A stretch of DNA of 64,000 nt, taken from the NCBI GenBank assembly GCA_963820525.1, contig CAWGAA010000001.1, positions 1,088,001-1,152,000 of the forward strand. The letters run 5' to 3'. Below, in pieces: positions 7,125 through 33,995 of this stretch (positions are counted from its first letter, which is position 1; every line of letters starts with the position of its first letter). This DNA is from an uncultured Spirochaetota bacterium (GTDB taxonomy: Bacteria > Spirochaetota > Spirochaetia > SZUA-6 > Fen-1364). The position numbers and the translations under genes are program-made. The notes beneath the pieces are model-generated. The model did no database searches. It worked only from the letters and a program-made list of their open reading frames with translations, and was not told the DNA's origin.

Positions 7125-7197
7125 TCCCCTGTAGCTCAGCTGGTAGAGCGGGTGGCTGTTAACCACTAGGTCGGCGGTTCGAGTCCGTCCGGGGGAG
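7125..7197 (+). tRNA. tRNA-Asn (anticodon GTT at 7158-7160); CCA not encoded
   Basis: Cloverleaf: acceptor TCCCCTG/CGGGGGA, D-arm GCTC-AGCTGGTA-GAGC, anticodon arm GGTGG-CTGTTAA-CCACT, T-arm GGCGG-TTCGAGT-CCGTC. Confidence 0.97.
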
Positions 7198-7211
7198 CTG
7201 AGACCGAGTCG

Positions 7212-7251
7212 AACAGGCCCTTTTATGGTTAACACTATAGGAGGGCCTGTT
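7212..7251 (+). terminator. 18-bp hairpin downstream of the tRNA (part of the reusable 'R1' att arm)
   Basis: AACAGGCCCTTTTATGGT-TAAC-ACTATAGGAGGGCCTGTT with G-U pairs; T-rich tail. Confidence 0.7.
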
Positions 7252-7276
7252 TCGTTTCGGCGTAAGCCAGTCACCA

Positions 7277-7414
7277 TCAGCTTGTCACGTTCTTTCGGAG
7301 TTCATGCCAGCTATTTGCCTCGGTGATGATGCTCTCACTGAGACATTCTGCGACAAATCCGCCATCCTGCTCTTGAAGTACTTCGAAAACGAGTTTGCCA
7401 TTTAGAGTCGCCAT
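7277..7414 (-). pseudogene. hicB: Truncated HicB-family antitoxin (45 aa, below the ORF-track cutoff)
   Basis: MATLNGKLVFEVLQEQDGGFVAECLSESIITEANSWHELRKNVTS*; similar to 33783-33995. Confidence 0.65.
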
Positions 7415-7640
7415 AGGCTATGTTCTTACTAGACTACTGACTCGTTTGTCGACGAATATTCAAAAGGGGTCAGTTTCTCCTTGTTCTTTTGCTCATGGCG
7501 GCTGGCTCGAAGCTCGTCAATCTGGGCGGGCGACTCCTGTGTTCCGCCGCCGGTCTTGAAAACCTCAGCGCTTCGCGATAAAGATAGCGGGGAGATGAGA
7601 AATTCGGGCCAAGAGCCACGACGCACCTGAAAAGCAGAGC

Positions 7641-10118
7641 ATGACAGACAGACAAGAGTTGCAGAACGAGATCTCACGCGAGGATACCCGGCTCACCGTC
7701 CTCAAAGCCGAAGTGGAGAAAAGCAACACCCGCTTAAACGCGCTTCGTGAGCAGCTCGCCGCTGAGCCGCCCCTGCAGATCGCCGTCCCCAGGCTGCCGG
7801 CTCCAGAGACAACACCGACACCGATGACGAATGCGGCCAAGGTCGCCCTTTTCCGGTCGCTTTTCCGAGGCCGCGAAGACGTCTTCCCGCGACGCTGGGA
7901 GAACGCGAAGAATGGCAAATCCGGCTACTCACCGGCCTGCACTAACGAGTGGGAGTACGGATTGTGCGCGAAGAAGAAGGGGCTCAACGCCAGCCGGCGT
8001 GTTCACTGCTGTGAGTGCCCCAGCCAGGCATTCATCCCGGTTTCAGACGAGGAGATCGCCAAGCACCTGCGAGGGGACCAGATCATGGGGGTCTATCCCC
8101 TCCTGCCAGACGATACGTGCTGGTTCCTCGCAGCCGATTTCGACAAGAAAACGTGGCATGATGATGTCATGGCGTTTATCGAGACCTGCGACACACACGG
8201 TATCCCCGTGGCGATCGAGCGATCCCGCTCGGGCAACGGCGCGCACGCCTGGTTTTTCTTCGCATCGCCTGTGCCCGCGGCAACAGCACGCAAGCTCGGC
8301 TGCTTTCTCATCACCGAGACCATGGCACATCGGCACCAGCTCTCGATGGAATCGTACGATCGCCTATTCCCCAACCAGGACACCATGCCGAAGGGCGGAT
8401 TCGGCAATCTGATCGCACTCCCTTTCCAACGTCATTCGCGCGACGCGGGCAACACCGTGTTAGTCGATGCCGTCCGAAAGCCCTGGTCCGATCAGTGGAC
8501 CTTTCTCGCCGGCATCAAGCGCCTCGATGCGACCTTCATCCACGCCCTCGCCGAAGAGGCCGCGAGTCGCGGGCAGGTGATCGGCGTCCGTGTAAGCGAG
8601 ACACTCGACGATGACGATCTGACGCCCTGGACCCGACCGCCTTCCGGACGCCCGAGAAAGGTCGTGATCACCGCGCCCCTACCTCCTAAGGTGAAGGCGG
8701 TCCTGAGCCAACGCTTGTTTATCGAGAAGGCCGGTTTGCCGTCGCCCCTGCTCAACGAGCTCAAACGCCTTGCTGCATTCCAGAATCCAGAGTTCTACAG
8801 GAAGCAGAGCATGCGCCTCTCAACGGTGCTCACGCCCAGGGTGATCGCGTGTGCCGAGGACTCCCCCGAACACATCACTCTTCCGCGCGGCTGTTTGCCC
8901 GATGCCGAGGCTTTGCTTCGCCAGAATGGAGTCGCGATAGATGTCAAGGACAAGCGTGAAGGCGGGACGCGGTCGACTTCGCATTCCAGGGCACCCTCAC
9001 CCCACTCCAGGAGTTTGCCGTGAAGGCGCTCCTCGAACATGATACCGGCGTGTGTGTCGCGCCGCCGGGCGTCGGCAAGACCGTAGTCGGCGCGTACCTA
9101 ATAGCAGCCCGGAAGACTAGCACGCTCATCCTCGTCTATCGCAAGCCGCTCCTCGACCAGTGGATCGGCCAACTGTCAATGTTCCTCGGCATCGGGCCCA
9201 AGGACATCGGCCGGATCGGCGCGGGGAAATCTAAACCCAATGGCCGGCTCGATGTGGCCATGGTCCAGAGCCTCGCGCGAAAAGGGAAGGTCGCAGATCT
9301 CGTCGCAGGCTACGGCCAGGTAATCGGTAATCCAAGACGAGGTCCATCATGCACCGTGTGTGAGCTTCGAGCGTGTTCTGGCCGAGGTGAAGGCCAGGTA
9401 CCTCGTCGGCCTCACCGCGACTCCACAGCGCCGAGACGGGCTCCATCCCATTCTCCACATGCAGCTCGGTCCGATCCGGTTTACGGCAGACGCGAAGAGC
9501 CAGACAGCCCAACGGCCGTTCGACCACAAGCTCGTCGTCAGAGAGACGGGGTTCTCACCCACTGGCCACACGGCCGATGCTGGAATCCAGGAGCTCTACG
9601 CGGCACTCGCCGCCGACAAGAAGCGCAACGACCTCATCTTCGACGACGTGCTGTGTGCTCTCGAGGAGAAGCGCTCGCCCATCCTGCTCACGGAACGGCG
9701 GGAGCATTTGGAACACTTCGCCGACCGGCTTCAACGCTTCACTTGACATCTTATCGTGCTCCACGGCGGCATGAAAGACAAGGAGCGACGTGAGGTTCTC
9801 TTGAAGCTCGCCGGGATCCCCGACGGAGAGGAGAGGCTTATCATCGCGACCGGCAGGTACATCGGCGAAGGCTTCGACGACGCCCGGCTCGACACCCTGT
9901 TTCTCGCGTTGCCTGTCTCATGGAAGGGGACGCTCGTCCAGTACACCGGCCGGCTGCATCGCCTGCATGCGGGCAAGACCGAGGTTCGGATCTACGACTA
10001 CGTTGACAGTGCGGTCCGGATGTTGTTGAAGATGTTCGAGAAGCGGCTTCGCGGCTACAGGGCGATCGGATACGTCCGTGACGAGGAGGTGCTTCGAAAC
10101 CCCGAGGATAGGACATGA
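7641..10118 (+). pseudogene. AEP-primase-like (TOTE-conflict type) domain fused to a superfamily II DExH helicase; disrupted
   Basis: CWFLAADFD, IERSRSGNGAHAW, FGNLIALP; Walker A APPGVGKT; DEVHH; GLTATP.RRDG; GEGFD..RLDTL; frameshift ~8968, 7-bp duplication 9319-9332, in-frame TGA 9744-9746. Confidence 0.85.
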
Positions 10119-10126
10119 GGAAAATA

Positions 10127-10353
10127 ATGGCCGCAGATAAGAGAAAGCCGTCAAAGAAGAAGGGGCATAGCAGGACTCCGTCGAACGCGAGGCTCGAGCG
10201 GATCGATATGACGATGACGAGCATATTGTCGCGGTCTGTACGCACGGGAAGTCGCCCCAACGCGTCCCGATCCTTGACCCACCGCTGCCTGACCCACTTC
10301 CCGCTGGCGCGGAGTGGATCGACGCATTTCGCCGCTGGGCACGAGGGAGATAA
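10127..10353 (+). pseudogene. Internally deleted/frameshifted CcbP-like ('calcium-binding') small protein
   Basis: Alternative frame gives DDEHIVAVCTHGKSPQRVPILDPPLPDPLPAGAEWIDAFRRWARGR*; the N-terminal ARLE joins directly to RID. Confidence 0.55.
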
Positions 10354-10355
10354 TC

Positions 10356-11051
10356 ATGGCCGGTCGACAGATCGATCGAGACAAGCTTAGGGCGGCCGTC
10401 CGCAGGCTGGGCGATGAGTACGTGTTCTATATGTTGGACGAGGCTATCGACCTCTTGCCCCAGGCGAAGCTCCTGAAGCTGGCAAAGCACTATATCGACC
10501 CGTCGAAGCTTGAACCGGATGGCAAGGCCGAAGGGAGCCTGCTCTCCGACGTGAAGGTTTTCGAGAAGGCGAGCTTGGCCGGCGAGTACTACGAGAGCTT
10601 CAATGTCAACTCGAAGAACTGCGTGGAAAAATCCACCGGCACCAGGGCTTGGATCGCCGATTGTCACCGGCTACTCGACCGCTGCGTGGCCCAGGAAAGG
10701 AAGGGCGATCCCGCCGATGTGCGCCAGGCTTTCGAAATCATCTTCGGGGTATTGGACCGCATCGACGAGTGTCTCGACGACGTCATCTTTTTCGCCGACG
10801 AGGCGGGATCGTGGCAGGTCGGCGTCGACTGGAACAAGGTCCTGCCTTCCTGGTTCAGGGTTCTTTCGGCAACTGCCGAGCCCGCGGAGTACGCCGAAAG
10901 GATCACGGTTTTGCTGGAGCGCCACTACAACTACGGGAGCAGGAAGATGCTCGCCGTCGCACGAAGGACGGCGACACCACAGCAACGTAAGGCCCTTTCT
11001 TGCGTCGTGAATCGGAAACCAAGTCAGCGACTACGCTGCAGGAAATCATGA
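10356..11051 (+). CDS. Hypothetical protein (island operon gene)
   Basis: GGGAG RBS; SLAGEYYESFNVNSKN and IFFADEAGSWQVGVDW segments; coupled to the next gene. Confidence 0.7.
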   Translation: MAGRQIDRDKLRAAVRRLGDEYVFYMLDEAIDLLPQAKLLKLAKHYIDPSKLEPDGKAEGSLLSDVKVFEKASLAGEYYESFNVNSKNCVEKSTGTRAWIADCHRLLDRCVAQERKGDPADVRQAFEIIFGVLDRIDECLDDVIFFADEAGSWQVGVDWNKVLPSWFRVLSATAEPAEYAERITVLLERHYNYGSRKMLAVARRTATPQQRKALSCVVNRKPSQRLRCRKS

Positions 11052-12187
11052 GCGAATACCAGTACTACGAGTTCCAGGCGATCGACCGGCCGCTCAGCGC
11101 GAAGGAGATGAGCGTGCTGCGGTCATACTCGACGCGGGCCCGCATCACGCCGACGAGCTTCGTCAATCACTACGAGTGGGGCAGCTTCAAGGGCGACGAG
11201 GACGCGTGGATGGAAAAGTACTTCGACGCGTTCGTGTACCTCGCCAATTGGGGCACGCACGTGCTTAAGCTGCGATTGTCGTCGAGGCTGCTCGATCCGG
11301 CAATGGCCGGGAAGTACTGCGGCGGCAATAGCGCCTTCATCCACGAGAAAGCCGGCAAGGTCATCCTGACCTTCGTGTCCGAAGACGAGGAAGGCGGCGA
11401 GTGGGAAGAGGGTGAAGGCCAGCTCTCCTCGATGATCTCCGTGCGGACCGAGCTGGCGCGCGGTGACTTGCGGGCCCTGTACCTGGGCTGGCTGCTTCGG
11501 GCGCAAGCCCGGGAACTCGACGACGAAGATGTAGAGCCGCCCGTTCCGCCGGGCCTCGGTCAGCTCAGTGCATCGCTGGAAAGCCTGGCCTCGTTCCTGC
11601 GCATTGACGACGACCTGCTGCACGTGGCCGCCGAGACCAGCAGGCCGCTTGGAGACACGGATATAGATCGGAACGAGGTCCGAGCGTGGGTCGAGAAGCT
11701 GGCGACCAAGGAGAAGGACGCGCTAATCGCGAACCTCATAATGGATGCCGACCACACCCTGGTTACGGAGCTGCTACAGCGGTTCATCAAGGAGCGATCG
11801 ACTGAAACCACGACGGACACGGTCCGAAGACGGACCGTGAGGCAACTCTGCCGGGCAGCCGAGGCCTTCGCAACGAAGCGTAGTCGCATCGAGGCTCACA
11901 AGCGTGCCGAGGCGAAAGCCCGCCTCGAACGCAAAGCCGCCATCGCCAGGGAAAAACATCTCGACAGCCTCGTCGGCCGCGAGCAGAAGCTGTGGGCCAA
12001 GGTAGAAACGCTAATCGCCGCCACGCAGCCGAAAAGTTACGACCTGGCCTTGAAGATCCTTGTCGACCTGCGCGATCTGGACGTCCGCGGCAAGGGCGGC
12101 GACTTCGCTCTGCGCATGGAAACGCTCCGGCAGGCTCACGCTCGAAAGCCCAGCTTCATCGAGCGGCTCGGGAAGGCAGGGCTGTAA
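11048..12187 (+). CDS. Hypothetical protein of the MSEYQYYEF..IDRPL type
   Basis: ATGA overlap; 379 aa; GDLRALYLGWL and RKPSFIERL..AGL terminus. Confidence 0.75.
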   Translation: MSEYQYYEFQAIDRPLSAKEMSVLRSYSTRARITPTSFVNHYEWGSFKGDEDAWMEKYFDAFVYLANWGTHVLKLRLSSRLLDPAMAGKYCGGNSAFIHEKAGKVILTFVSEDEEGGEWEEGEGQLSSMISVRTELARGDLRALYLGWLLRAQARELDDEDVEPPVPPGLGQLSASLESLASFLRIDDDLLHVAAETSRPLGDTDIDRNEVRAWVEKLATKEKDALIANLIMDADHTLVTELLQRFIKERSTETTTDTVRRRTVRQLCRAAEAFATKRSRIEAHKRAEAKARLERKAAIAREKHLDSLVGREQKLWAKVETLIAATQPKSYDLALKILVDLRDLDVRGKGGDFALRMETLRQAHARKPSFIERLGKAGL

Positions 12188-12846
12188 TGGCGGCGAACAG
12201 GCACACCAGAAAACCTCTGGATCGGCGTAAGAAAACGACACCGAAATCGACAAAAGGTAGCCGGAAGAGCGTCTTGGGCAAAATGGCCCCATATGAGCTG
12301 GCCACCGTCCTGCAAGCCCTGCTGAAGAGACATCCGGAGCTCAAAGCCGAGGCGGAGGCGGCCGCCATCGGGATGGTGTCCGCCTTATCCGTCGAAGACA
12401 TCGCCGCGAAAGTGTTCGATGCAGTGACATCGCTCGGCCTCGAATCCCTTCACGGCCGCGCGGGCAATCAGCCGTGGGGCTACGTGGAGCCGGCAGACGC
12501 CGCCTGGGAATTGCTCGAAGAACCGGTCGAGGACATCATCGCCGACATGAAACGGTACATGGACCTCGGGCTGAAGACGGCGGCTGAAACGATCTGCTGT
12601 GGAATCGTGGCGGGTCTCCACAAGGCCGAGAGCGTCGGCTCAAACGGTCTGCTCGGTTGGGCGCCGGACTTTGCCGAAGAGGAAGCGTGTAATGCCGTCT
12701 TCGAGTTGATCCGCGCGTGCCCTGGCAAGGACCGCCGTGCCGTCCACGACAGGCTCGTCGAGGCTCTCGACGACCTCGTCCTGAACTGGCACAAAACGCT
12801 CTCTCAAACGGCAGTTCGCGCGTTACACAGCAGCTCGGTGTCGTGA
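12187..12846 (+). CDS. Hypothetical protein
   Basis: TAATG overlap; GRAGNQPWGYVEP.DAAWELLEE segment. Confidence 0.65.
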   Translation: MAANRHTRKPLDRRKKTTPKSTKGSRKSVLGKMAPYELATVLQALLKRHPELKAEAEAAAIGMVSALSVEDIAAKVFDAVTSLGLESLHGRAGNQPWGYVEPADAAWELLEEPVEDIIADMKRYMDLGLKTAAETICCGIVAGLHKAESVGSNGLLGWAPDFAEEEACNAVFELIRACPGKDRRAVHDRLVEALDDLVLNWHKTLSQTAVRALHSSSVS

Positions 12847-12885
12847 AAAACATACACACCCATGGTTAGAGTGCGGCCGGAATAC

Positions 12886-12978
12886 AGCTTCTTTTACTGT
12901 TTCCGCTTCCGTGATGAGTTGGGGATCAAGGGGGGAAGTCACGACGTATCCACATTCTTCGGCTTCTTCCAGCGTAAG
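12886..12978 (-). pseudogene. hicB: Internal fragment of a HicB antitoxin
   Basis: LTLEEAEECGYVVTSPLDPQLITEAETVKEA vs LTLQEAEEGGYVVTSPLDPQLITEADTVKEA in 33783-33995; no start codon. Confidence 0.85.
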
Positions 12979-12984
12979 TTTGAA

Positions 12985-13233
12985 TTACTTCTTGCTCGAC
13001 CTTGCTCCAGCGACCCGGTATTCGCGGTAGTCGAGACCGAGGGGGAAACGGCCGGCTTGGTTGTACCAGTTACCGGCAGAGCGTTTCAAGTCAGTAATCC
13101 CGGCGATGTTCATCTCTGGCAGGTGCGGGCCGTGGTAGAACTGCTCTCTTCGGGCGTTCCGCCGAATGAGGACAAATCGCGGCAGCGGCAAAGCGTCCTC
13201 GATCAGGCTTATGAATGAGGGCATTGATCGTTT
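12985..13233 (-). pseudogene. 'LIED' att-adjacent ORF remnant, copy 1 (putative HTH/recombinase-domain protein)
   Basis: FISLIEDALPLP...GPHLPEMNIA...GLDYREYRV aligns with 32456-32770. Confidence 0.6.
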
Positions 13234-13263
13234 GGTCGCTGGTTCGAGTCCGTCCGGGGGAGC
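13234..13263 (+). repeat. tRNA-Asn 3'-half direct repeat (att junction 2)
   Basis: GGTCGCTGGTTCGAGTCCGTCCGGGGGAGC, 28/30 identical to 7169-7198. Confidence 0.95.
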
Positions 13264-13275
13264 AAAGGAAAGGTC

Positions 13276-13315
13276 GAGCTGGCTCTCTCTGGCGTTCGCC
13301 ATGGAGAGCCGGCTC
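13276..13315 (+). terminator. R1-type hairpin
   Basis: GAGCTGGCTCTC..TGGCG-TT-CGCCA..GAGAGCCGGCTC. Confidence 0.65.
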
Positions 13316-13403
13316 TGACAATAGTCATTCCGCTTGGCGATTTCGGAAGTGCGGCGGGAGGAGCGGAAGTTTCAATAGGAGCGGCAGACCAATCTGGCAT
13401 GAG

Positions 13404-13682
13404 TCACTGGCGGCGCCATTCCATTCTTTCATACACATCCTTCCTGTGACAGACGCCAAGAATGAGAATGTCTTCACCTTCGATTTTCAGAACAATCCGA
13501 TAGTCCCCAACCCGCAGCTTTCTGTAGCCTTTCAGAGTTCTTCTCAATGGCTCCGAGTACTTGTCTGGAGATTCAAGTAGCCGCTGCTCAATGGCGACCT
13601 TGACTCTTTTCTGGATTGTCCGGCTGAGTTTTGGCAAGTCCTTTGCCTTGACGTCCGGGTGGTAGCTGAGGTGATAGGGCAC
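13404..13682 (-). CDS. relE: RelE/ParE-family toxin
   Basis: PLRRTLKGYRKLRVGDYRIV...HRKDVY signature. Confidence 0.9.
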   Translation of the reverse strand: MPYHLSYHPDVKAKDLPKLSRTIQKRVKVAIEQRLLESPDKYSEPLRRTLKGYRKLRVGDYRIVLKIEGEDILILGVCHRKDVYERMEWRRQ

Positions 13683-13684
13683 CT

Positions 13685-13912
13685 CTATCCCCAGACCTCA
13701 GCGTGCGTTAGGGTTTTCCGACGGGCTAGTGAATCAACACGCTCATCCGCAAAGCTCACGAGGGCAGAGTCCTCGAGGATTTCCAGAGCCTCCCGGACCA
13801 AGTCCCTGGTCACCATGGACAAGGACAATCCTCTCTCCTTCGCCATCCTCTCGATCAACGAATAGACCGGCCTTTCGAGGGCAACATTGATTCGGGGATT
13901 CTTGGTAGGCAT
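13685..13912 (-). CDS. RHH (CopG-like) antitoxin
   Basis: MPTKNPRINVAL..YSLIERMA..RGLSLSMVTRDLVREALE; directly upstream of the toxin; GGAGG RBS. Confidence 0.85.
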   Translation of the reverse strand: MPTKNPRINVALERPVYSLIERMAKERGLSLSMVTRDLVREALEILEDSALVSFADERVDSLARRKTLTHAEVWG

Positions 13913-13930
13913 TGCTTTCCTCCAAGGAAT

Positions 13931-13959
13931 AGTGTATCACTTATGAGACACTGTGGCAA
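13931..13959 (-). promoter_or_regulatory. Sigma70-type promoter with overlapping operator for the RelE/RHH operon
   Basis: TTGCCA-17 nt-TACACT, conserved at 33465-33493; AGTGT..ACACT dyad. Confidence 0.65.
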
Positions 13960-14257
13960 CTGCCCATGAGGGCGCTTGACCGCCGAGTAGGGCAATCGCG
14001 GCTGCCAAGGGGATCTGCAACGCCGAAAACGCCACTCCGAGAACATGGTCGCTGCGAGGTTGATCCACGGCCGCTTTTACTTTGAGCCCGTCGTTATCAG
14101 GAATGCCTTCACACGGCGCACAAGCCGCAAGCGCAAGGTTGTAGAGGAGCGACCTTGAGCGACATGAATCCGTCCTTTGCCGATTTCGGTGCTTGCCGTA
14201 TGAGAAATGGACGGTATCCTCGATCATTTGCAGCAAATGACCGCGTTACCAACCCGT
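13960..14257 (-). pseudogene. 'LIED' ORF remnant, copy 2 (strongly decayed)
   Basis: QMIEDTVHF and GIPDNDG; TCCTCGATCA DNA motif at a similar distance from the repeat. Confidence 0.4.
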
Positions 14258-14285
14258 TCGGCGGTTTGAGTCCGTCCGGGGGAGC
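14258..14285 (+). repeat. tRNA-Asn 3'-half direct repeat (att junction 3)
   Basis: TCGGCGGTTTGAGTCCGTCCGGGGGAGC, 27/28 to 7171-7198, followed by the R1-like GAGTCGAACTGG. Confidence 0.95.
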
Positions 14286-14385
14286 GAAGATTGAGTCGAA
14301 CTGGTTTCCCCTGGCTAACACGTCGCAGCTTGCAGGGGGCGTCCCCAAGGCGCCCAGGAGGATCCGGCTGAAGAACTGAGAGAGG

Positions 14386-14637
14386 CTACCCCGTGCTCTT
14401 CAGCTCCTCTCTGAGGATGCGGCGAAGGGTTTCCACGTCCAGCGGACGCGCTGACCTTCCCAGATACTCACGGAGGGCATCGTTTATCATGGTCTGGTAT
14501 CCCCGGCCGGCGGCATCCGCACGGTTGCGGAATTCCTCCAGAATCTCATCATCAAGGTAGATGCTGATCCTGCTCTTCCCTTTCTGAGGGATGACCGCCC
14601 CCCGCTTGGCCTTGCTGAAGTCATATTCCTTCCTCAT
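14386..14637 (-). CDS. brnA: BrnA antitoxin family protein
   Basis: MRKEYDFSKAKRG...RISIYLDDEILEEFR...GYQTMINDALR. Confidence 0.9.
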   Translation of the reverse strand: MRKEYDFSKAKRGAVIPQKGKSRISIYLDDEILEEFRNRADAAGRGYQTMINDALREYLGRSARPLDVETLRRILREELKSTG

Positions 14638-14893
14638 AGTTTTTCCTCTCACTCCTCGTCGCGGTCCTGGCCGAAATCAGCCGGATTGTCTGACCGCGAT
14701 AGGAGTAGACAATGACAACAATCCGGCCTGATGAATCCGTCCCCATGGACACGAACCGTTGCTCGCCGCGAGCCTGGGAATCCTCCCTTGTGAGGGCAAA
14801 GGGATCAAAGAGCACCGCCTCGGCGTCGGAGAAGCGAATCCCATGCTTCCTTTGATTCGACGCAGCTTTCCGGGGATCCCACACAACTTGCAT
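14621..14893 (-). CDS. brnT: BrnT family toxin
   Basis: WDPRKAASNQRKHGIRFSDA...GEQRF...IRLISARTATRSER. Confidence 0.9.
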   Translation of the reverse strand: MQVVWDPRKAASNQRKHGIRFSDAEAVLFDPFALTREDSQARGEQRFVSMGTDSSGRIVVIVYSYRGQTIRLISARTATRSERKNYEEGI

Positions 14894-15027
14894 ACTCAGA
14901 GCATATACATACATTATACATATATCAAGTGCCTGACGGCAATCGGAATACGGAGGGACGCAGGCAAAGTCGTATGGGGCCGCGAAAGCGAAATCATCGC
15001 TGAGCGGGTAGACGCTGGAGCTTAGAC

Positions 15028-15168
15028 TCAAGGATTTCCGAATGCGATGGCTGCGAGTGAAAGGCTGTACAGATGCGGCCTTGGAAAGCACAAGCTTTGT
15101 ATTTGCATGCTCCGGCTCCCTTTGTGCATGAAGCATAGCAAGTCCTCGATCAGCGGGATGGCCGACCG
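15028..15168 (-). pseudogene. 'LIED' ORF remnant, copy 3
   Basis: AIPLIEDLL...RPHLYSLSLA, in frame with APPDGLEP across the repeat. Confidence 0.5.
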
Positions 15169-15210
15169 TGTTAACGTCCAGGTCGCTGGTTCGAGTCCGT
15201 CCGGGGGAGC
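15169..15210 (+). repeat. tRNA-Asn 3'-half direct repeat from the anticodon loop (att junction 4)
   Basis: TGTTAACGTCCAGGTCGCTGGTTCGAGTCCGTCCGGGGGAGC, 37/42 to 7157-7198. Confidence 0.95.
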
Positions 15211-15220
15211 AGAGTTGGAC

Positions 15221-15257
15221 AGGCAGTCGGCACAGAGTCGACTGCCTTTTCTGTTTC
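15221..15257 (+). terminator. Rho-independent terminator; its antisense encodes a recombinase C-terminal tail ('R2' arm)
   Basis: AGGCAGTCGGC-ACAGA-GTCGACTGCCT then TTTCTGTTTC; antisense reads AQETEKAVDSVPTACPTLLPRTD. Confidence 0.75.
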
Positions 15258-15274
15258 TTGGGCGCAGCGGCAGG

Positions 15275-23139: not shown

Positions 23140-23164
23140 CAGGGACCTCGCGAGGAGCTGGCCC

Positions 23165-24197: not shown

Positions 24198-24513
24198 AGG
24201 ATCGGACAGGCAGTTGGGTTACCATCTGCCTGTTTTTTATATCCTGAGCGTAGTTGCGCGCCGCCTGTGCCATTCGGTGAATGATGTAGAACGGAGGCTT
24301 GAAGGCAAGGGCCACTTGGTCGTCCTTGAGCGCCGAGCCTGGCATGATGAAGTGCAGGAGAGCCGCCCGTTAGGCTTGGCCCCGCCTTCGGTAGAACACT
24401 TAGGCGTTCCAGGCGATCTCCAGGAGCCGGATCCCCTGCTCGATGTAGTTCTGGTCCGCCTTCTCGTGCCGCTCGATCTGAGCGCGGATTTAGGCCTGTT
24501 CCTCGCGCCACTG
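24186..24513 (-). pseudogene. C-terminal remnant of a large serine recombinase reading into the att core
   Basis: QWREEQA*IRAQIERHEKADQNYIEQGIRLLEIA.NA*VFY...RAALLHFI.PGS.LKD...AFKPPF then, after a shift, TACPILLPRT; three in-frame TAA. Confidence 0.7.
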
Positions 24514-27952: not shown

Positions 27953-27971
27953 GGCGGAGACTACGGCAGCG

Positions 27972-28084
27972 GTAGAAAGCGTTCCATTCTAATGTATTTG
28001 CCTTAGCTCCCCCTATTGGACGAGCTTCGAACCTACTGCTACGAGCATCAGATCGAGAGATCCCCGCGCTACTGGCGGTTGTGA
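27972..28084 (-). repeat. att junction 6, inverted (core GCTCCCCC at 28006-28013), R3 arm joined to the 'LPLLDELRTYCYE' arm
   Basis: R3 arm is an imperfect inverted copy of 28203-28236; the other arm matches 29995-30051 plus 31605-31626. Confidence 0.8.
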
Positions 28085-28202
28085 AGGGGTGTTCGAGGGA
28101 GTCCTTGGTTCTCAAGCGGAGAAAGGGCGGCAACGAGATGATGCCCTCGATTTGCGCGGGGGTTGCTCGGCGCGCGTTCGCTACCTATTGCCCCGGGGGA
28201 GC
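28085..28202 (+). repeat. att junction 7 (core 28195-28202) preceded by 'LIED' ORF remnant copy 4 on the minus strand
   Basis: CCGGGGGAGC; minus strand APPGQ*VAN..AQIEGIISLPPFLRLRTKDSLEHPF resembles LIEDTLQLPSLFRLRDHIDTEQPI. Confidence 0.7.
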
Positions 28203-28412
28203 AAAGACCAACACACTCGAACGGAGCGCTTTCTGGCTCACACTGGAAAGCGCTATTTTTATGCCTCCCTCCAACAGCTGAAAGGAGGAGATCAGGCCCG
28301 TCAAAGCTGTCTTTTGTTCGTCCTCGCGCTGCCTAAGCGCCTTCTGGATTCGGCTCCTGTATGCTGCGAATAAATTCTTGTCATCGGAGACGAGGCTTTC
28401 AAGTTCATCGAT
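28185..28412 (-). pseudogene. Probable C-terminal tail of a second large serine recombinase lineage crossing the core
   Basis: IDELESL..EQKTALTGLISSFQLLEGGIKIALS..KALRSSVLVFAPPGQ*; ends on the core. Confidence 0.5.
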
Positions 28413-28456
28413 GGATTGGCCAACGAGAGCCACGGCGGCCGGCCCAATAGGGTCAT

Positions 28457-29056
28457 TCACTTCTTTGTGTACAGGATGAAACAGCCCTTCACTTTTCGAC
28501 ACTCCAAATCCTGTAGACCAGCCGCGCGAAAAAGCCGTTCCATCTCCCTTCGCGAGTAAAAGTGATAAACACCGAATTTTAAAAAGGGCACAATGCCATT
28601 TGCCAAAACGCGAATGGGATTGGGAAAATCTAATTCCGCAATGAGAAGAAGGCCGTCCGGCTTGAGCACACGCAACATCTCCTTGAGCACCGCCATGGGC
28701 CGCGGGTAATGGTGGAAAGAAGAGGTGCATATCACGACGTCGAATTCGCGGTCGGGCCACGGCAGGAATTCGGAATCGCCGACCACGAGCCGGGCCTTAC
28801 CCGCAAGTCTTTGTCCCGCCTGTTTTATCATCTCGGGAGAGATGTCGATTCCGCTTATTTTTTTTCCTTCTTTCCACAGCATCTCCATGATTCTGCCGTC
28901 ACCGCAGCCCACGTCGAGAAGGGATTCACAGGCGAAACCGTTTATCAGCCGCGCGATTTCCTCATCCGCGTTCGAGCCCATGTGCGCCGTACCGTAATTC
29001 CCCGCCCACCTATCAAATTGCTTTTTTGATTTTTCCTTGTAAACCGCCGCTTGCAT
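28457..29056 (-). CDS. Class I SAM-dependent methyltransferase
   Basis: LLDVGCGDG, GIDIS..MI, FDVV..SFHH, RVLKPDG. Confidence 0.9.
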   Translation of the reverse strand: MQAAVYKEKSKKQFDRWAGNYGTAHMGSNADEEIARLINGFACESLLDVGCGDGRIMEMLWKEGKKISGIDISPEMIKQAGQRLAGKARLVVGDSEFLPWPDREFDVVICTSSFHHYPRPMAVLKEMLRVLKPDGLLLIAELDFPNPIRVLANGIVPFLKFGVYHFYSRREMERLFRAAGLQDLECRKVKGCFILYTKK

Positions 29057-29524: not shown

Positions 29525-29963
29525 TCAACCAGGGTCCTTGATTAGCCGGACTCTGAATTCCATCCGCAGGAAGGCATGATGACCGTCGCGCAGCAGGTTG
29601 CGCACACAGCACAGGCTCTCGATTGGGTCATGGGTGGTCAGCCTATTCGCAACATCGTATGGTCTTTGGTCGATCACTGCGCGCATCACCGCGGCGCCCT
29701 GACCGTGTACTCCCTGTCGCTCGGAAAAGTGCCCCCGATACCGTACGGCGTCTGAACGGATCGCTGTAACCATACGGCGCACCATCTCGTCATGTCGTCG
29801 CTTTTCTGTAAATCCGGAATCCGAAGCCCAGATGGACCCAGGGGTGTTTGGTGCCTGCTCGTACCCTCACCTTGCCGCCGCGCACAGCGTTTCGTGCGTT
29901 GCGGCAGTCATGAGGCGGTCTTCGATGAGGGCGGGAGGCCCGACGTTAGCCTTCGGTCTGCTG
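29525..29963 (-). pseudogene. 'LIED' ORF remnant, copy 5 (longest, several lesions)
   Basis: APASRPKAN..PPALIEDRL; downstream frames give APYGY and AAVMRAVI..DVANRL. Confidence 0.4.
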
Positions 29964-29986
29964 GCGGGAGCAGAGACTGAGTCGAA
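29964..29986 (+). repeat. att junction 8 (variant core GCGGGAGC plus a short R1 arm)
   Basis: GCGGGAGCAGAGACTGAGTCGAA vs GGGGGAGCTGAGACCGAGTCGAA at 7191-7213. Confidence 0.7.
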
Positions 29987-30139
29987 TGAAACGATCAGAT
30001 GGCCAGGAGCGTGGGTATCTCATCGATTTTATTCTCATAGCAGTAAGTTCTGATATGAAGTGACCTGTCAAGCCTGCCCTCTTTTTTCCTCTTATCTGTT
30101 CCTCCTTGGGCGGGGCATTTCGAGCAAAGGTCGAAGCGG

Positions 30140-30300
30140 CGTTCGACGACGGCTGATCACTCTGATATTCGCGGATCGAGCGTCACTGCCCGCCTGCATA
30201 ATCGTGATCCGTCGGGAGCTGCCTCTGACTAAGAACGCGAGTCCGGTCGATATCGACCTGTCGCATAGAACCTATCGAGGATTCTCCTTTCCGTGTGCCG
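30140..30300 (-). ncRNA. Putative bridge/seek RNA of the IS110 element
   Basis: Non-coding end downstream of the transposase, with two stem-flanked loops holding target-matching (TAGGTTCTA, CTTAG) and donor-matching (ATTATG, ATATCAG) segments. Confidence 0.7.
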
Positions 30301-30362
30301 TGCGACCTTTGCCCGCAATACCCCACCATCATAGCTTGCTTACCTCGGCGCGGCGCACCCTT

Positions 30363-31511
30363 CTACGCCGCGCCTTTTGCCTTCTGCGCCTGAGCGCTTT
30401 CCACGCTCACCCCGATGGCCCAGATGAATCCCAGCATCTCGCGTGCCACCGCAGTAACCACTTCCTGTCTTGATTTGCCTTTGCCCAGCAGGTGCATATA
30501 GCGGCTATGAAGGCGGTGACGTGCCTTCGATGCAACCTCCTGCACTTCCGCACTCAGGCCTTCCTGGCGCTTGCGCATGGCGAGGCTGAGCACTGGTTTG
30601 TAGCGTTGGGACCACGCCGCTTCCACTATGACGCGTCGCAAATGGGCGTTGCCGGTCTTGGTAATCCCTCCGCGGCGAGTCTTGCCGCCGCTGGAATGCT
30701 CGCTGGATACCACCCCGCTGTATCCCATGAGCTGACGCGGGTGCTCAAAGCGCGACAGCGTGCCCAATTCGGCCACGATCGTCACCGCCCCCACCTTCGC
30801 CACTCCCCGAAGCGCCTGCAGCGCTTGGATGAGTTCACGCATGCTCTCCGGCGCCTGCTCGACTGCCTCGTCGATCGCCTTCTCAAGCCGGACAATTCGT
30901 ACGCTAGTATGCTCCACTTCGTTGAGGTAGTCCTCCAAGGTCACCTGCTGGGGCCGCTGATCGAAGCTCACCTCCCGTTTGATCCAGTCGAGGTACTGTT
31001 GCGTCCACGACCGCATTGTCTGCGGCGGGCGTTTGCCATGCCGCAGAAGGTATTTCCCAAGTCGATGGCGAGCTCGGAGTTGGTCTTGCTTTGACGCCTC
31101 CCGCGCACGCACCAGGTCTCGCAGTGCCTCGTGTGCCGCATCGGGCACCCACACCGGCGTTAGCTCCCCAGCCCGAAAGCTGCAAGCCAACCGCTCGGCA
31201 TCCCGCCTGTCGGTCTTCACCCGATCCCCTGCCTTCGTTGGCACCAGTGTCGGCGCTATCACCACACAGGGGATCCCCAGCTTCGTCAGTTGCCAGTACA
31301 GCGTGTAGCCCGTCGGTCCGGCCTCGTAGCAAGCCGCCCACGCGCCCCCCTCATTGAGTTTCTTCACGAGCTTTCGAACGCTCTCCTCCCGATTGGGGAT
31401 GCTCCCGAGCCTGCGGACTGCCTCATCCTTTTCCGCCATCGCCGCCACGATGGTCTCCGCATGGGCATCGAGCCCTACAAAACGCCGCACTGCTGTGATA
31501 GCCTTCTTCAT
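30363..31511 (-). CDS. IS110-family DEDD transposase/recombinase
   Basis: FVGLDAH, YEAGPTG, KTDRRDA, SEHSSG..RRGGITKTGN. Confidence 0.95.
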   Translation of the reverse strand: MKKAITAVRRFVGLDAHAETIVAAMAEKDEAVRRLGSIPNREESVRKLVKKLNEGGAWAACYEAGPTGYTLYWQLTKLGIPCVVIAPTLVPTKAGDRVKTDRRDAERLACSFRAGELTPVWVPDAAHEALRDLVRAREASKQDQLRARHRLGKYLLRHGKRPPQTMRSWTQQYLDWIKREVSFDQRPQQVTLEDYLNEVEHTSVRIVRLEKAIDEAVEQAPESMRELIQALQALRGVAKVGAVTIVAELGTLSRFEHPRQLMGYSGVVSSEHSSGGKTRRGGITKTGNAHLRRVIVEAAWSQRYKPVLSLAMRKRQEGLSAEVQEVASKARHRLHSRYMHLLGKGKSRQEVVTAVAREMLGFIWAIGVSVESAQAQKAKGAA

Positions 31512-31604
31512 GACCGCCTCCTTCGTATGTAGCTCTGCGCTACTTTCACCCGATCGCAGCGCAATCTACGATGCTACGATCGGGGCGGTCACTTCATTAT
31601 GACT

Positions 31605-31678
31605 AAGCTCGTCCAATAGGGGGAGCTGAGACAGAGTCGAACTGGCTCTCTTTGGCTAAGACCATGGGGAGCCGGTTC
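31605..31678 (+). repeat. att junction 9 (core 31619-31626) with R1 arm and hairpin 31639-31678
   Basis: CCAATAGGGGGAGCTGAGACAGAGTCGAACTGGCTCTC...GGGAGCCGGTTC. Confidence 0.85.
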
Positions 31679-31872
31679 TTCTTCGGCCTCTTCCACGCCG
31701 GCTCCTTTCAAATAGTGCTAGAATACTTTGTTGTTTCTGCGAGGTGCAAATACTACCAGTGTCAACGCTCGGTGAGCTGCGCAGACTAGGTCATCAGGAA
31801 TCTGCCGGATGGCTATGGAAGCTTGTCGCAGACCAGGGAAAGATGTAGACTTCACATGAGAGGCCACTTGTC

Positions 31873-32073
31873 ATGATGATAGATACAGAGAGAGAAGAGG
31901 ATGGCCGCTGGATCGCCGAGGTTCCCGATTTACCTGGTGTGTTGGTCTATTCAACAACACGGACCGCGGCGATTGCGAAAGCAAAGGCTATGGCTCTTCG
32001 GGTCATAGCCGATAGGCTCGACCACGGCGAAGAGGTGCCGGAGCTCAATAAGCTATTTCCTACTCCCGCATGA
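31873..32073 (+). CDS. hicB: HicB-family antitoxin
   Basis: EREEDGRWIAEVPDLPGVLVY.TR..A.AKAKA.ALRV.ADRLDHGE. Confidence 0.9.
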   Translation: MMIDTEREEDGRWIAEVPDLPGVLVYSTTRTAAIAKAKAMALRVIADRLDHGEEVPELNKLFPTPA

Positions 32074-32285
32074 CACGATGGCGATCCGTCAAGGCGCGCA
32101 CCGTCCTCAGCGCTCTGCATCGATTGGGCTGGGTGATCAAGCGCGAGACGGGAGGTTCGCACAGAGTTCTCTCTCGTCCGGGATTTCCTGACTTTGTATT
32201 TGCTTTTCATGAGGGCGAAGAAATCGGGCCTCGAATGCTGGCAAGAATCTCAAAACACACCGGACTTAGCCCAGAAGACTTGTAA
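32070..32285 (+). CDS. hicA: HicA-family toxin
   Basis: AL.RLGW.IKRETGGSHRVL..FAFHEGEEIGPRMLARI.K.TGL; ATGA overlap. Confidence 0.9.
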   Translation: MTRWRSVKARTVLSALHRLGWVIKRETGGSHRVLSRPGFPDFVFAFHEGEEIGPRMLARISKHTGLSPEDL

Positions 32286-32455
32286 CAAGGCAAGGGGCGA
32301 GCCAACAAATTTCTTCACGTAGATGGTGCACTCGTTTAGGACCCAAGACAGTCCACCTTTGAGCTATGCCATCGCCTGGAACCCCGAGGGGGCAGCTACC
32401 TGTCAGGTTACGTTGCTTCTAGATGGAAAAAGCAGTTGAAAAATCTCCCGGAGAA

Positions 32456-32770
32456 TCAAACCGCAGGCTTTGTGGTGCTGGATAGCCAAATCGCGTCCTG
32501 TTCAATCCTGCTCTTCACAACCCAGTGTTCGCCGTAGTCGTAGCCGCAGAGCATTTGGCTGGGAAGCTCGTGCCCGTTTCCCCCATGTGGGATGCCAAAC
32601 TCGTTCAATGCCGCTATCACAACTGAACAGCCCACAGCGGCTTTGCGGGCGATGTTCAGCGCGGGCAGGTGTGGACCGCAGATGGGCTGTTCCGTGTCGA
32701 TATGATCCCGAAGGCGGAATAATGACGGCAGTTGCAAAGTGTCCTCGATTAGGCGTATGAAGGGGGGCAC
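32456..32770 (-). pseudogene. 'LIED' ORF remnant, copy 6 (best preserved)
   Basis: FIRLIEDTLQLP..GPHLPALNIARKAAVGCSVVIAALNEFGIP..GNGH..SQMLCGYDY..VVKSRIEQDAI; HTH-like segment then a G.DY motif. Confidence 0.6.
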
Positions 32771-32861
32771 TAACCTCCTGGTCGGCGGTTCAAGTCCGTC
32801 CGGGGGAGCTGAGACCGAGTCGAACTGGCCCTTTTATGGTTAACACCAAAGAGGGCCAGTT
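32771..32861 (+). repeat. tRNA-Asn 3'-half plus R1 arm direct repeat (att junction 10)
   Basis: 35/39 identical to 7160-7198, then near-identical to 7199-7251 with a compensatory stem change. Confidence 0.95.
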
Positions 32862-32937
32862 GTGTCTTACCGTCATTTCACGGAGCGGAAGAAATGGTCC
32901 GACAGACGTTGGAGAAGCACCACCTCCTGCGATTGGA

Positions 32938-33216
32938 CTACTGGCTGCGCCACTCCATTCTCTCGTACACATCCTTTCGGTGGCAAATACCGAGAATCAG
33001 GATGTCCAAGCTTTCAATCTTCAGAACGATCCGATAGTCCCCAACCCTCAGCTTTCTGTAGCCTTCCAATGTTCTTCGGAGCGGCTCCGAGTACTTCTCC
33101 GGGGACAACAAAAGCCTCTGCTCGATGGCGGTCTTGATTCGTTTCTGAATGGTCCGGTTGAGTTTGGGAATATCCTTCGCTTTGACGTCAGGGTGATACC
33201 GGAGGCGGTAGGGCAC
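32938..33216 (-). CDS. relE: RelE/ParE-family toxin (paralogue of 13404-13682)
   Basis: 79/92 aa identical by manual count. Confidence 0.9.
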   Translation of the reverse strand: MPYRLRYHPDVKAKDIPKLNRTIQKRIKTAIEQRLLLSPEKYSEPLRRTLEGYRKLRVGDYRIVLKIESLDILILGICHRKDVYERMEWRSQ

Positions 33217-33218
33217 CT

Positions 33219-33446
33219 CTATTCCCAGACTTCAGCGTGCGTCAAGGTTTTGCGACCGGCCAGCGCCGCAACGCGCGCATCCGCGACGTGGACCAGCACG
33301 GCATCCTCATGGATTTCCAGAGCTTCCCGGACTAAGTCCCGTGTCACCATGGACAGGGACAATCCTCTCGCGTGAGCCATTCTCTCGATCAGGGAATAAA
33401 TCGGTTTCTCCAGAGCAACGTTGATGCGCGGATTCTTGGTAGGCAT
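33219..33446 (-). CDS. RHH antitoxin (paralogue of 13685-13912)
   Basis: 61/75 aa identical by manual count; promoter TTGCCA-17-TACACT at 33465-33493. Confidence 0.85.
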   Translation of the reverse strand: MPTKNPRINVALEKPIYSLIERMAHARGLSLSMVTRDLVREALEIHEDAVLVHVADARVAALAGRKTLTHAEVWE

Positions 33447-33507
33447 TACGTACCTCCAACTCCGAGTGTAACACTTATGAGACACCCTGGCAAGAGCCCG
33501 GCAAGGC

Positions 33508-33566
33508 TTAAACGGCCAGGAGAGCGGGTATCTCTTCGATCCTGTGCTCGTAGCAGTAAGAGTTCG
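33508..33566 (-). repeat. Orphan 'YCYE' att arm lacking its core
   Basis: YCYEHRIEEIPALLAV*; 33514-33560 is 39/47 identical to 30001-30047. Confidence 0.8.
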
Positions 33567-33592
33567 GTCACCGATGCTACCTTCCAGCCCTC

Positions 33593-33786
33593 CTACGCTC
33601 CCACAGGGGCTTGAATCCCGAGTATCCTGCGAATCCCCTGGCGGTCGCCCTCTTGATAGTCGTGTGCCTCGGCACGGGTGCGTGTGATTGTGTTCTTGGA
33701 TTTACCCAAATGTCATGGTGACTTCCGTGATGGTTGAGAAAACAGCCGTGCAAGCGAAGGTGCCTTTCAAGCGCCCTCCGATTCAT
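33593..33786 (-). CDS. hicA: HicA-family toxin (apparent frameshift in the G-run near 33637)
   Basis: MNRRALERHLRLHGC..HHGSHHDIWVNP..APVPRH; adding one base restores RGIRRILGIQAP. Confidence 0.8.
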
Positions 33787-33995
33787 GCTTTCACCCCAGC
33801 CAACTTTTTAATCAGTTTTCGTCGGGAGGCAGCAAGAGCAGCCAGAGCGTCTCGCGCATTCTCGAAGGCTTCCTTGACGGTATCCGCCTCGGTGATAAGT
33901 TGGGGGTCAAGGGGAGACGTCACAACGTACCCGCCCTCTTCGGCTTCCTGAAGAGTGAGAACGACTTTTCCGCCGCTCACAGTGCATTGTTTCAT
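33783..33995 (-). CDS. hicB: HicB-family antitoxin
   Basis: LQEAEEGGYVVTSP.DPQLITEADTVKEAFENARDA; promoter TTGACG-18-TATCCT at 34003-34032. Confidence 0.85.
   Translation of the reverse strand: MKQCTVSGGKVVLTLQEAEEGGYVVTSPLDPQLITEADTVKEAFENARDALAALAASRRKLIKKLAGVKA

Follow-up and report, generated by a model that had tools for sequence, protein, structure and literature searches.

Integrative elements that accumulate at the 3' end of a conserved gene have close precedents. In staphylococci, the staphylococcal cassette chromosome (SCC/SCCmec) is inserted at the 3' end of rlmH (orfX) by large serine recombinases (LSRs) known as CcrAB and CcrC, tandem arrays bounded by short direct repeats are formed, and pseudo-SCC without a recombinase can be moved by Ccr in trans. 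To our knowledge, no SCC has a split recombinase gene. In Dehalococcoides, genomic islands occur in tandem downstream of a single-copy small-RNA gene (ssrA), each bounded by a direct repeat of the 3' end of this gene, with a ~540-aa serine recombinase (DsiB) on the reverse strand adjoining the left attachment site (attL); fifteen islands lack such a module altogether, as regards integration, and are read as cis-mobilizable elements (CIMEs) gathered by accretion (PMC3146451). Here, we describe an array of this kind in the genome of an uncultured Spirochaetota bacterium, in a stretch of 64,000 nucleotides (the window; positions 1,088,001 to 1,152,000 of contig CAWGAA010000001.1). We consider it likely, with a probability of roughly 0.8, that its 7.1-34 kb region is a fossil accretion array built from elements of one LSR clade that target the 3' end of tRNA-Asn.

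The initial annotation knew of no described system like this array, a statement that has to be withdrawn, since close precedents exist in the ssrA islands, in SCC composites, which are similar, and in CIME accretion. Clear differences are nevertheless seen. In SCC, the target is a protein gene and the elements are far larger. The ssrA islands are alike in layout, but they target the tmRNA gene instead of tRNA-Asn; units here go down to ~0.7-1 kb and are mostly toxin-antitoxin (TA) pairs, and their hosts are Spirochaetota and Elusimicrobia. The account of the ssrA islands, as far as accessible, mentions neither an element attachment site (attP) inside the recombinase gene nor a detachable C-terminal domain (PMC3146451), and there is no equivalent here of DsiA, a second small recombinase.

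An attP inside a coding gene has been described elsewhere, for tyrosine recombinases. In the 'suicidal' SSV-type integrases of Archaea, attP lies in the integrase open reading frame (ORF), which is cut in two when the element enters a tRNA gene, and fossils pile up (PMC7253208, PMC8371274), whereas the enzyme here is a serine recombinase. In the integration-dependent immunity of mycobacteriophages, attP lies in a coding gene whose protein differs at its C terminus between free and integrated forms (PMC8092301), but the split gene is that of the repressor, the integrase being again a tyrosine recombinase, whereas here the integrase itself is split. Because the 523-aa N-terminal part left at attL keeps every canonical LSR domain and only an accessory C-terminal domain is lost, the enzyme need not be 'suicidal'. 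An intragenic attP in a serine integrase appears to be new: no report of a serine recombinase with attP in its own gene was found in the literature searched, subscription journals being outside its scope. Finally, the array shares with chromosomal integrons units of ~1 kb between structured repeats of ~100 nt, a TA-rich cargo and an IS110/IS1111-type insertion into a repeat. Unlike integrons, it has no IntI, attI or Pc, its repeats read as parts of an LSR gene together with a tRNA mimic and not as attC sites, and its cargo lies in both orientations; the 93 ORFs of the window gave no PF00589 match, which an IntI-type tyrosine recombinase would give, and the array begins with a tRNA gene.

This gene, tRNA-Asn(GTT), is the sole tRNA gene in the window and the sole asparagine tRNA among the 46 tRNA genes of the genome (ARAGORN). 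Its eight 3'-terminal bases are the core, GGGGGAGC, which has 14 exact copies in the window. In 100 dinucleotide-preserving shuffles, the mean number of copies was 5.46 (sd 2.38, largest 13), and none reached 14. Alignment, repeat finding and self-BLAST reveal homologous flanks at nine of these copies (7191, 13256, 14278, 15203, 24190, 28006 on the minus strand, 28195, 31619 and 32802), and the flanks of a one-mismatch variant, GCGGGAGC at 29964, are like those of exact cores, which bears out the ten places initially listed. The remaining exact cores (16495, 17120, 34837, and 49747 and 60352 on the minus strand) showed no flank homology, three having been aligned and the last two lying outside the self-compared region. 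Self-BLAST of this region (7-35 kb) gave 17 off-diagonal matches at E <= 1e-3, headed by the tRNA site against site 10 (7160-7251 versus 32771-32861, 90% over 92 nt, E 1e-28). The initial observation is therefore confirmed.

The 8-bp core is common to the sites and the arms diverge at once on both sides of it. All arm types originally proposed were recovered. Downstream, an R1 arm follows the cores at 7191, 13256, 14278, 29964 (only ~16 nt), 31619 and 32802, an R2 arm those at 15203 and 24190, and an R3 arm that at 28195, with a degenerate inverted copy left of 28006. Upstream, the core is preceded by (i) the tRNA itself, (ii) a copy of its 3' half, from anticodon loop to 3' end, with a box, TCCTCGATCAG, ahead of it (at 13196, 14217, 15143 and 32742), (iii) a non-tRNA arm with the same box (28195 and 29964) or (iv) an arm called LPLLDEL (28006, minus strand, and 31619). 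The box lies at a fixed distance upstream of every tRNA 3'-half copy. The cores at 7191, 13256, 14278 and 15203 follow one another in direct order, the last three with a tRNA-half copy, and further sites extend to 32802. Self-BLAST adds arm fragments at 30001-30047 and 33511-33560, and matching arms occur at five further places in the genome (C1:2123530, C1:2132874, C2:200590, C2:200692 and C2:206904). On reading the sequence by eye, a possible imperfect dyad around the G|A of the core is seen, with GTTCGAGTC of the T loop ~10 nt to one side and GAGTCGAAC of R1 ~10 nt to the other, the motif being placed differently in R2 and R3.

What these arms represent is best seen in recombinase genes of relatives. 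In genomes G004 and G021, a 523-aa LSR lies tail-to-tail with tRNA-Asn, and its C-terminus, ...FAPPAGLEPAT*, comprises APP from the core and then the reverse reading of the tRNA, as far as a stop codon in the anticodon stem. The G021 protein (LSR_G021), whose gene abuts tRNA-Asn, has all three LSR domains (Resolvase, E 6.5e-33, Recombinase and zinc ribbon), which makes the catalytic domain that of a serine recombinase, not a tyrosine-recombinase fold. An LSR ending in ..FAPPDG at tRNA-Asn had been predicted; besides G004 and G021, such a gene, with the ending ...FAPPAGLEPAT*, is present at five of ten related loci in public genomes (metagenome-assembled genomes, MAGs, of Spirochaetota and Elusimicrobia) and at 15 of 46 loci on metagenome contigs. 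Among the ten there are also two full-length genes with the ~135-aa C-terminal DNA-binding domain of this LSR clade, for which we use the name LIEG, and three fragments; among the 46, LIEG follows directly in six, and most others are fragments or are cut by contig ends.

Comparison of interrupted and uninterrupted genes shows where attP lies. Residues 1-183 of protein P0124 align with residues 338-515 of LSR_G021 (38%, E 8e-34) up to ..AP, beyond which P0124 continues into LIEG and LSR_G021 into ..PAGLEPAT*, that is, the tRNA read backwards. In the same way, locus L080 has one open frame of 682 codons (675 aa when counted from its first start codon), which reads ...NQKALRSSVLVFAPP-NQPEANAG..ALIEG..., whereas L074 and L075 have the same tail but read ...NQKALRSSVLVFAPP-AGLEPAT*, the switch coming right after ..APP; L080 and L074 form a natural before/after pair. 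From these two comparisons it follows that the recombinase gene contains attP. An unbroken single frame of 648-698 codons was confirmed in five of the six loci with a direct LIEG (L080, L084, L091, L093 and L099). The downstream R arms are accordingly the last LSR codons, and the box is the conserved start of the C-terminal domain; LIED is the minus-strand translation of the box, and the 'LIED ORF' of the initial annotation is the start of LIEG. R1 encodes ..ESQFDSVSAPP, R2 ..CLSNSAPP and R3 ..QKALRSSVLVFAPP, the last of which, at site 7, is identical to the tail of the live genes L074 and L080, so the earlier view that more than one recombinase lineage was at work is upheld, as are its attribution of the sites to LSRs and its placing of the exchange point at the 8-bp core. 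None of the 10 + 46 loci shows a complete element whose two ends share a contig, and terminal overlap identified none of seven contigs, six with uninterrupted full-length genes, as circular.

LIEG was reached through a less decayed copy on another replicon (L001), which led to intact genes of ~150 aa in five relatives. A word-index search returned 153 close homologues, many already tagged PF07508, and an exhaustive HMMER search with the 137-aa LIEG ORF of L038 returned 1219 proteins at E <= 1e-3; the word-index search with the degenerate window ORF 32456-32770 had brought up neither longer relatives nor any other match, and the intact L038 LIEG later succeeded as query. Full LSRs with a C-terminal LIEG include P0141 (654 aa), P0143 (626 aa) and P0217 (601 aa), which match this query at 32-49% identity over ~130 aa and carry Resolvase, Recombinase and Zn_ribbon_recom (Pfam). 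LIEG itself matches positions 3-50 of PF07508 (24.3 bits, cut-off 21.1) and is predicted to be a helix-turn-helix (HTH) followed by the first half of a second recombinase-type fold.

The window itself holds an LSR tail, a core and the start of LIEG in one piece (28466-28080), as well as LIEG remnants at 13323-12988 and 32824-32489, all on the minus strand, and these support the reading of the region as an array of LSR elements (Table 1). In site 7, residues 90-219 of P0124 match across the core (34%, E 2.5e-10) and residues 438-517 of LSR_G021 match 28430-28191; this site is an unrecombined attP within the remains of an LSR gene. The remnant at 13323-12988 matches residues 161-280 of P0124 across the core (E 1.6e-8), and that at 32824-32489 (minus strand) matches the L038 LIEG (37.5%, E 6e-15). 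The R1 arm of site 1 reads ..GLFDSVSAPPDGLEPPT* on the minus strand, and the arm of site 6 recurs at C2:200590 and C2:206904. A strong hairpin (z <= -3) is present in eight of ten R arms, 12-20 nt beyond the tRNA end; these include the live attL of G021, where it falls within the LSR coding sequence. The tRNA was the sole true match when 6.5-35.5 kb was scanned with Rfam, one to Histone3 at E 0.008 being due to chance, and the idea that tRNA half plus box form a D-arm-less tRNA was rejected since, on reading the sequence, the anticodon stem is unpaired.

As for the cargo, three units with both attachment (att) ends (13264-14285, 14286-15210 and 31627-32809) have no recombinase and consist of TA genes and arms only (Pfam). 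Cassettes like unit 2 are found in eight relatives and orthologues of the unit 3 BrnTA cassette in six, in both cases at 79-81% identity. The first uninterrupted array is closed by site 4. In unit 1, the primase lies at 7641-9023, the helicase pieces at 9020-9793 and 9756-10118 and the LIEG remnant at 12985-13302 (minus strand); an intact 838-aa paralogue of this primase-helicase (67% DNA identity) is encoded at L002:10099-12615. The last unit is 73% identical to 13102-13965, and its homology to ParE cassettes of genomes G017, G022 and G013 begins at the core.

Table 1. Sites, units and other features of the array (window coordinates; RHH, ribbon-helix-helix; AEP, archaeo-eukaryotic primase; P arm, arm on the attP side; attB, target attachment site)
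Feature	Position	Strand	Support
tRNA-Asn(GTT), attB	7125..7198	+	ARAGORN; Rfam tRNA model 66.2 bits
Site 1: core 7191-7198 and R1 arm with strong hairpin	7191..7262	+	fold z = -8.13
Unit 1, 6.07 kb: TOTE-type AEP primase, broken helicase, several unknown ORFs, decayed LIEG remnant	7199..13263		Pfam
Site 2: box 13196-13206, tRNA half 13217-13255, core 13256-13263, R1 and hairpin	13196..13327	+	fold z = -5.92
Unit 2, 1022 bp: ParE toxin 13404-13682 (-), RHH antitoxin 13685-13912 (-)	13264..14285		Pfam
Site 3: box 14217-14226, tRNA half 14239-14277, core 14278-14285, R1 with decayed hairpin	14217..14349	+	fold z = +1.19
Unit 3, 925 bp: BrnA antitoxin 14386-14652 (-), BrnT toxin domain within 14621-15136 (-)	14286..15210		Pfam
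Site 4: box 15143-15153, tRNA half 15164-15202, core 15203-15210, R2 hairpin then T-run	15143..15274	+	fold z = -2.43
Site 5: core 24190-24197 and R2 arm	24184..24261	+	85% to 15197-15230 over 34 nt; fold z = -4.33
Site 6, inverted: degenerate R3-like arm 27953-28005, core 28006-28013, LPLLDEL arm 28014-28085	27953..28085	-	repeat I1, 93% over 29 nt
Site 7: LSR tail 28466-28203 (R3), core 28195-28202, non-tRNA P arm and LIEG start 28194-28080	28080..28466	-	
Site 8: box 29918-29929, non-tRNA P arm, variant core 29964-29971, short R1 29972-29988, distal LPLLDEL 30001-30047	29918..30047	+	
IS110-family element: transposase 30363-31511, short inverted ends	30048..31604	-	Pfam DEDD_Tnp_IS110 and Transposase_20
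Site 9: remaining LPLLDEL arm, core 31619-31626, R1 and hairpin	31605..31690	+	fold z = -3.63
Unit, 1183 bp: HicB 31873-32073 (+), HicA 32070-32285 (+), LIEG remnant 32456-32770 (-)	31627..32809		Pfam
Site 10: box 32742-32752, tRNA half 32763-32801, core 32802-32809, R1	32742..32873	+	fold z = -5.03
Unit: ParE 32938-33216 (-), RHH antitoxin 33219-33485 (-), core-less LPLLDEL fragment 33511-33560	32810..33560		Pfam

The array is a fossil in this genome (G000; 5.05 Mb in four contigs, the window lying inside a 3.2-Mb contig), because no intact LSR of the clade is present in the window or elsewhere in G000. Only scraps of the clade are seen, at 28430-28191 of the window and at C2:204357-204473 (39 aa), and neither Resolvase nor Phage_integrase is matched by the 60 ORFs at 3.8-36.8 kb or the 33 flanking ORFs (Pfam). 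The single PF00239 gene of the genome (C3:236511) was rejected as a source, since it belongs to another clade and is 26% identical; ten other LSR genes of the family are likewise of an unrelated clade, six giving no match whatever. Seven of 92 genomes of the order have the clade at E <= 1e-40.

An insertion sequence (IS) of the IS110 family accounts for one oddity of the map. The element, which has both IS110 domains and exists as a single copy in the genome, interrupts one arm: the halves 30001-30047 and 31605-31633 match one continuous LPLLDEL arm at 27999-28080 (self-BLAST), the insertion point lying between the positions equivalent to 28027 and 34. The cores at 29964 and 31619, originally counted as two sites, do both carry arms but are therefore the two ends of a single ~100-bp unit. 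As a single copy merely inserted in one arm, IS110 was rejected as the recombinase of the system, and no bridge RNA for it came up in the Rfam scan, the only search made. Att arms seem to be favoured targets of IS, just as integron attC sites are favoured targets of IS1111 elements. Elsewhere, IS630-type DDE_3 elements lie in or beside arms at L001 8730-9839 (G000:C2) and L046 6153-6830 (G019), and a second IS110-family transposase is found near an array at L034 283-1335 (G004).

How could such an array arise? The free element would carry a recombinase gene of ~650-700 codons encoding, in this order, the catalytic domain, recombinase domain, zinc ribbon, coiled coil, a short linker and LIEG, with attP in the linker, where the opposite strand of the core GGGGGAGC would encode Ala-Pro-Pro. 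Exchange of strands within the core would join the tRNA to the last LSR codons, forming attL, so that the gene would end in ...FAPP-AGLEPAT*, and LIEG would remain at the far end of the element as attR. The hairpin in the 3' coding end of the LSR would then stand where the tRNA needs a terminator, and we infer that it replaces the displaced one. Later elements would insert at any site that keeps a tRNA-like left arm and a core, giving stacked units with arms swapped at the core, before all catalytic parts were lost and only att scars, LIEG pseudogenes, addictive TA pairs, a broken AEP primase-helicase defence gene and IS110 were left. Gene architecture, the split at the core and the shuffling of arms can be read in the sequences compared; the order of events and the use of internal sites as targets we infer.

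Several points weigh against this scenario. (i) No contig has the LSR N-terminal part at attL and LIEG at attR, all 20 tRNA-adjacent contigs ending in or just beyond the recombinase module. (ii) No live LSR was found with a linker made of box and tRNA half, the arm that dominates the window; the uninterrupted genes seen have a weakly tRNA-like 'canonical' linker, and the origin of the tRNA-half arms is therefore unexplained. (iii) Recombination of attP with attL or attR is not known from canonical LSRs, and stacking would therefore require a relaxed choice of partner or else a tRNA-like arm that acts as a regenerated attB. (iv) Inverted site pairs (28006/28195, the ends of the element in L002 and C2:200590/206904) are not accounted for. 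(v) The left arm of site 5 is unrecognisable. (vi) The box is absent from seven of 25 tRNA-half sites in relatives, which other integrases crossing over in the anticodon loop could explain.

Arrays of this type are common in the family, for example in G008:C92 where five cores lie 695-889 bp apart, and their cargo is mainly TA pairs, with KatG/Fur, sugar-uptake genes and AbiE also present. All sequences compared contain 121 core occurrences, 25 of which, the tRNA itself excluded, are distinct and have a tRNA-half left arm; the box is present in 18 of these, at a fixed offset. When five ParE cassettes are aligned from -130 to +330 about the core, homology is continuous on the right and the left arms differ in kind. 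Thus, the cassettes of G017, G022 and G013 have R1 arms that are 87-92% and cargo that is 91-96% identical, whereas their left arms are unrelated (10/30 to 27/39 matching positions in the tRNA-half zone). One ParE cassette joined at the core to different left arms in different genomes argues that units are shuffled there, in agreement with the initial proposal that arms switch, and that relatives exchange units, at the core. The same proposal went too far in counting units of ~0.1 kb as cassettes, since these are cargo-less scars, which in one relative lie in frame inside the recombinase linker.

Do such units still move? An LSR acting in trans might excise core-bounded units as circles, TA units without a recombinase included, and re-insert them in the manner of an integron, which we regard as rather doubtful for a working platform even if trans-mobilisation of ~1-kb TA units is plausible and compatible with the data. 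Many units of ~0.7-1 kb do keep both arms (units 2 and 3 of the window, the cores of G008:C92, and an 805-bp DUF433/PIN unit of G014 with its box 26 nt past the cargo stop codon), the box is held at its offset in those 18 of 25 arms, and the same cassette stands behind different left arms in different genomes; moreover, L074 and L075 are LSR-bearing elements inserted at a tRNA half to which no 5' half belongs, which means that insertion into internal sites can take place. However, this genome is without an LSR of the clade, the two ParE units of the window are only 73% identical and so give no sign of recent movement, and ParE units vary in length (1.0, 1.6, 3.3 and 4.3 kb) by internal change, not by gain or loss of whole units. 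The box is also explained by coding constraint on ..ALIEG/D.., arms could persist through slow decay, and no circular junction was seen in the contigs of four metagenome runs, which could hardly show one. That the arm combinations instead reflect homologous recombination and deletion among repeats of ~45-90 nt, after one or two true integrations, is unlikely: repeats of 30-92 nt at 80-97% identity are long enough for RecA-dependent exchange, the genome has no recombinase, and the internal content of units differs between genomes, but exchange occurs at the 8-bp core even between non-homologous arms (LPLLDEL and tRNA half), where homologous recombination would not put its breakpoint, and at least three divergent lineages of LSR tail (R1, R2 and R3) require several independent elements.

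It is very improbable that the tRNA-half repeats are attR scars of tyrosine-integrase islands crossing over in the anticodon loop, with the serine-recombinase pieces as unrelated neighbours. The tRNA identity of box-type arms does start at the anticodon loop (GTTAAC), the seven box-less sites among the 25 copy the tRNA exactly from there (e.g. L027:14473 and L032:4065), and the genome has twelve PF00589 matches, one of them 3.4 kb past the window end; yet homology between cassettes breaks at the 3'-end core and not at the anticodon loop, no tyrosine integrase is encoded in 3.8-64 kb, 22 independent contigs carry live LSR genes whose ends lie within the tRNA, and box, tRNA half, core and R arm read as one segment of an LSR gene. 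We give almost no credence to an assembly artefact in which separate loci collapsed onto a tRNA-derived repeat. It is true that short-read contigs break at cores (15203-15210), that a loose end at 15182 carries the left arm of a second locus (C1:2132840) and that tRNA-Asn is at a contig end in many relatives, but the genome is in four contigs with the window well within one of them, contigs from other samples (X2 record 15 and X4 record 31) bridge the core at 14278 with at most one mismatch, and the architecture recurs in more than ten independent assemblies. The core at 13256 is bridged by no piece among the contigs of the four runs, whose cover is fragmentary; nothing in these other-metagenome contigs suggests mis-assembly, though exclusion is not possible at every junction.

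A bolder reading, which we offer tentatively, goes beyond the fossil array: it is possible that the LSR clade runs a cassette-exchange system in trans, a serine counterpart of the integron, with splitting of the recombinase at attP as a built-in switch. Judging from its resemblance to the tRNA, the left arm may let integration regenerate both a target-like site (tRNA-like arm, core and flank) and a donor-like one, and any core-bounded unit, including TA or defence cassettes without recombinase, could then be inserted, excised and reshuffled in trans. As for the switch, the full-length enzyme with its extra DNA-binding domain may integrate, and the truncated enzyme and free LIEG may act differently (excision or silence).

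Serine integrases are prized tools for genome engineering, and control of their direction and choice of partner site is an active question. A clade with attP in its own gene makes it testable whether integration removes the accessory DNA-binding domain and so sets directionality, its target is a conserved tRNA 3' end common to several phyla, and the arrays record which variant sites nature accepted. They also account for tRNA-Asn as a hotspot of assembly breaks in many Spirochaetota MAGs, and show how this place gathers TA and defence genes (TOTE primase-helicase, a BREX-like system, AbiE).

Other features of the recombinase family and its elements deserve mention. Six proteins of 520-660 aa (P0166, P0177, P0186, P0191, P0199 and P0214) have six to eight tandem stretches that match the first HTH of LIEG, and in P0167 (847 aa) five Recombinase-domain repeats come after a Resolvase domain. 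Divergent from the LSR is a small gene for an Xre-type HTH protein, likely a recombinase regulator, in every live element examined (L052:1290-1511, L053:497-706, L054:27-254 and L080:840-1064, all minus strand). The xre-LSR module is flanked by conserved inverted repeats made of paired GC-rich hairpins and then a G-run (L052:1160-1260, L053:330-420, L080:~560-700 and ~3200-3330); the pair is also found downstream of LIEG in L038, L039, L043 and L045, homology between elements stops at it, and it may be where the module gives way to cargo. None was found in G000.

Relatives also provide unusual arrangements of sites. In G019 (L046/L047, C10:766000-800000), two inverted LIEG modules lie ~19 kb apart around a BREX-like cluster (DUF6079, DNA methylase, PglZ and SNF2 helicase), and in L047 a single perfect palindrome of the R2 stem separates two cores that face each other. 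In G018:C18 (L048 7867-11166), a HepT/MNT TA pair and a LIEG module lie between two near-identical partial copies of a radical-SAM gene, which in other relatives is the left neighbour of tRNA-Asn. The T-stem of tRNA-half arms (e.g. L035:3893, L024:14237 and L029:9872) varies with pairing kept (GCCCG/CGGGC versus GCTGG/CCGGC), and the halves give the impression of copies taken from the tRNA-Asn of different hosts.

In G000, a 9.4-kb element (L002 5493-14924, within C1:2118000-2137999), encodes the intact AEP-TOTE primase-helicase mentioned above, together with a methyltransferase and MNT-type genes, and has core plus R2 hairpin (46 nt) on both flanks, as identical copies in inverted orientation. 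A 1.6-kb part of it (L002 7971-9545) is 98.5% identical to 34363-35928 of the window, which indicates a recent duplication that is not core-bounded. In the window, the ORF at 23658-24284 (plus strand) reads through the core at 24190 and R2 (...RGSRIGQAV...) and has a weak match, below the Pfam cut-off, to Y2_Tnp (IS91-type); a similar reading is found at the left end of the L002 element (~5530-5560). The tyrosine-integrase match past the window end (C1:1155438-1155899, 86.9 bits) lies in a 420-aa open frame. Upstream of tRNA-Asn, a 606-aa ORF at 3822-5642 (plus strand) combines FliM (residues 11-201) with the middle and C-terminal domains of FliG (386-594), an apparent FliM-FliG fusion, and a FliN-like ORF lies just upstream of it (3574-3825).

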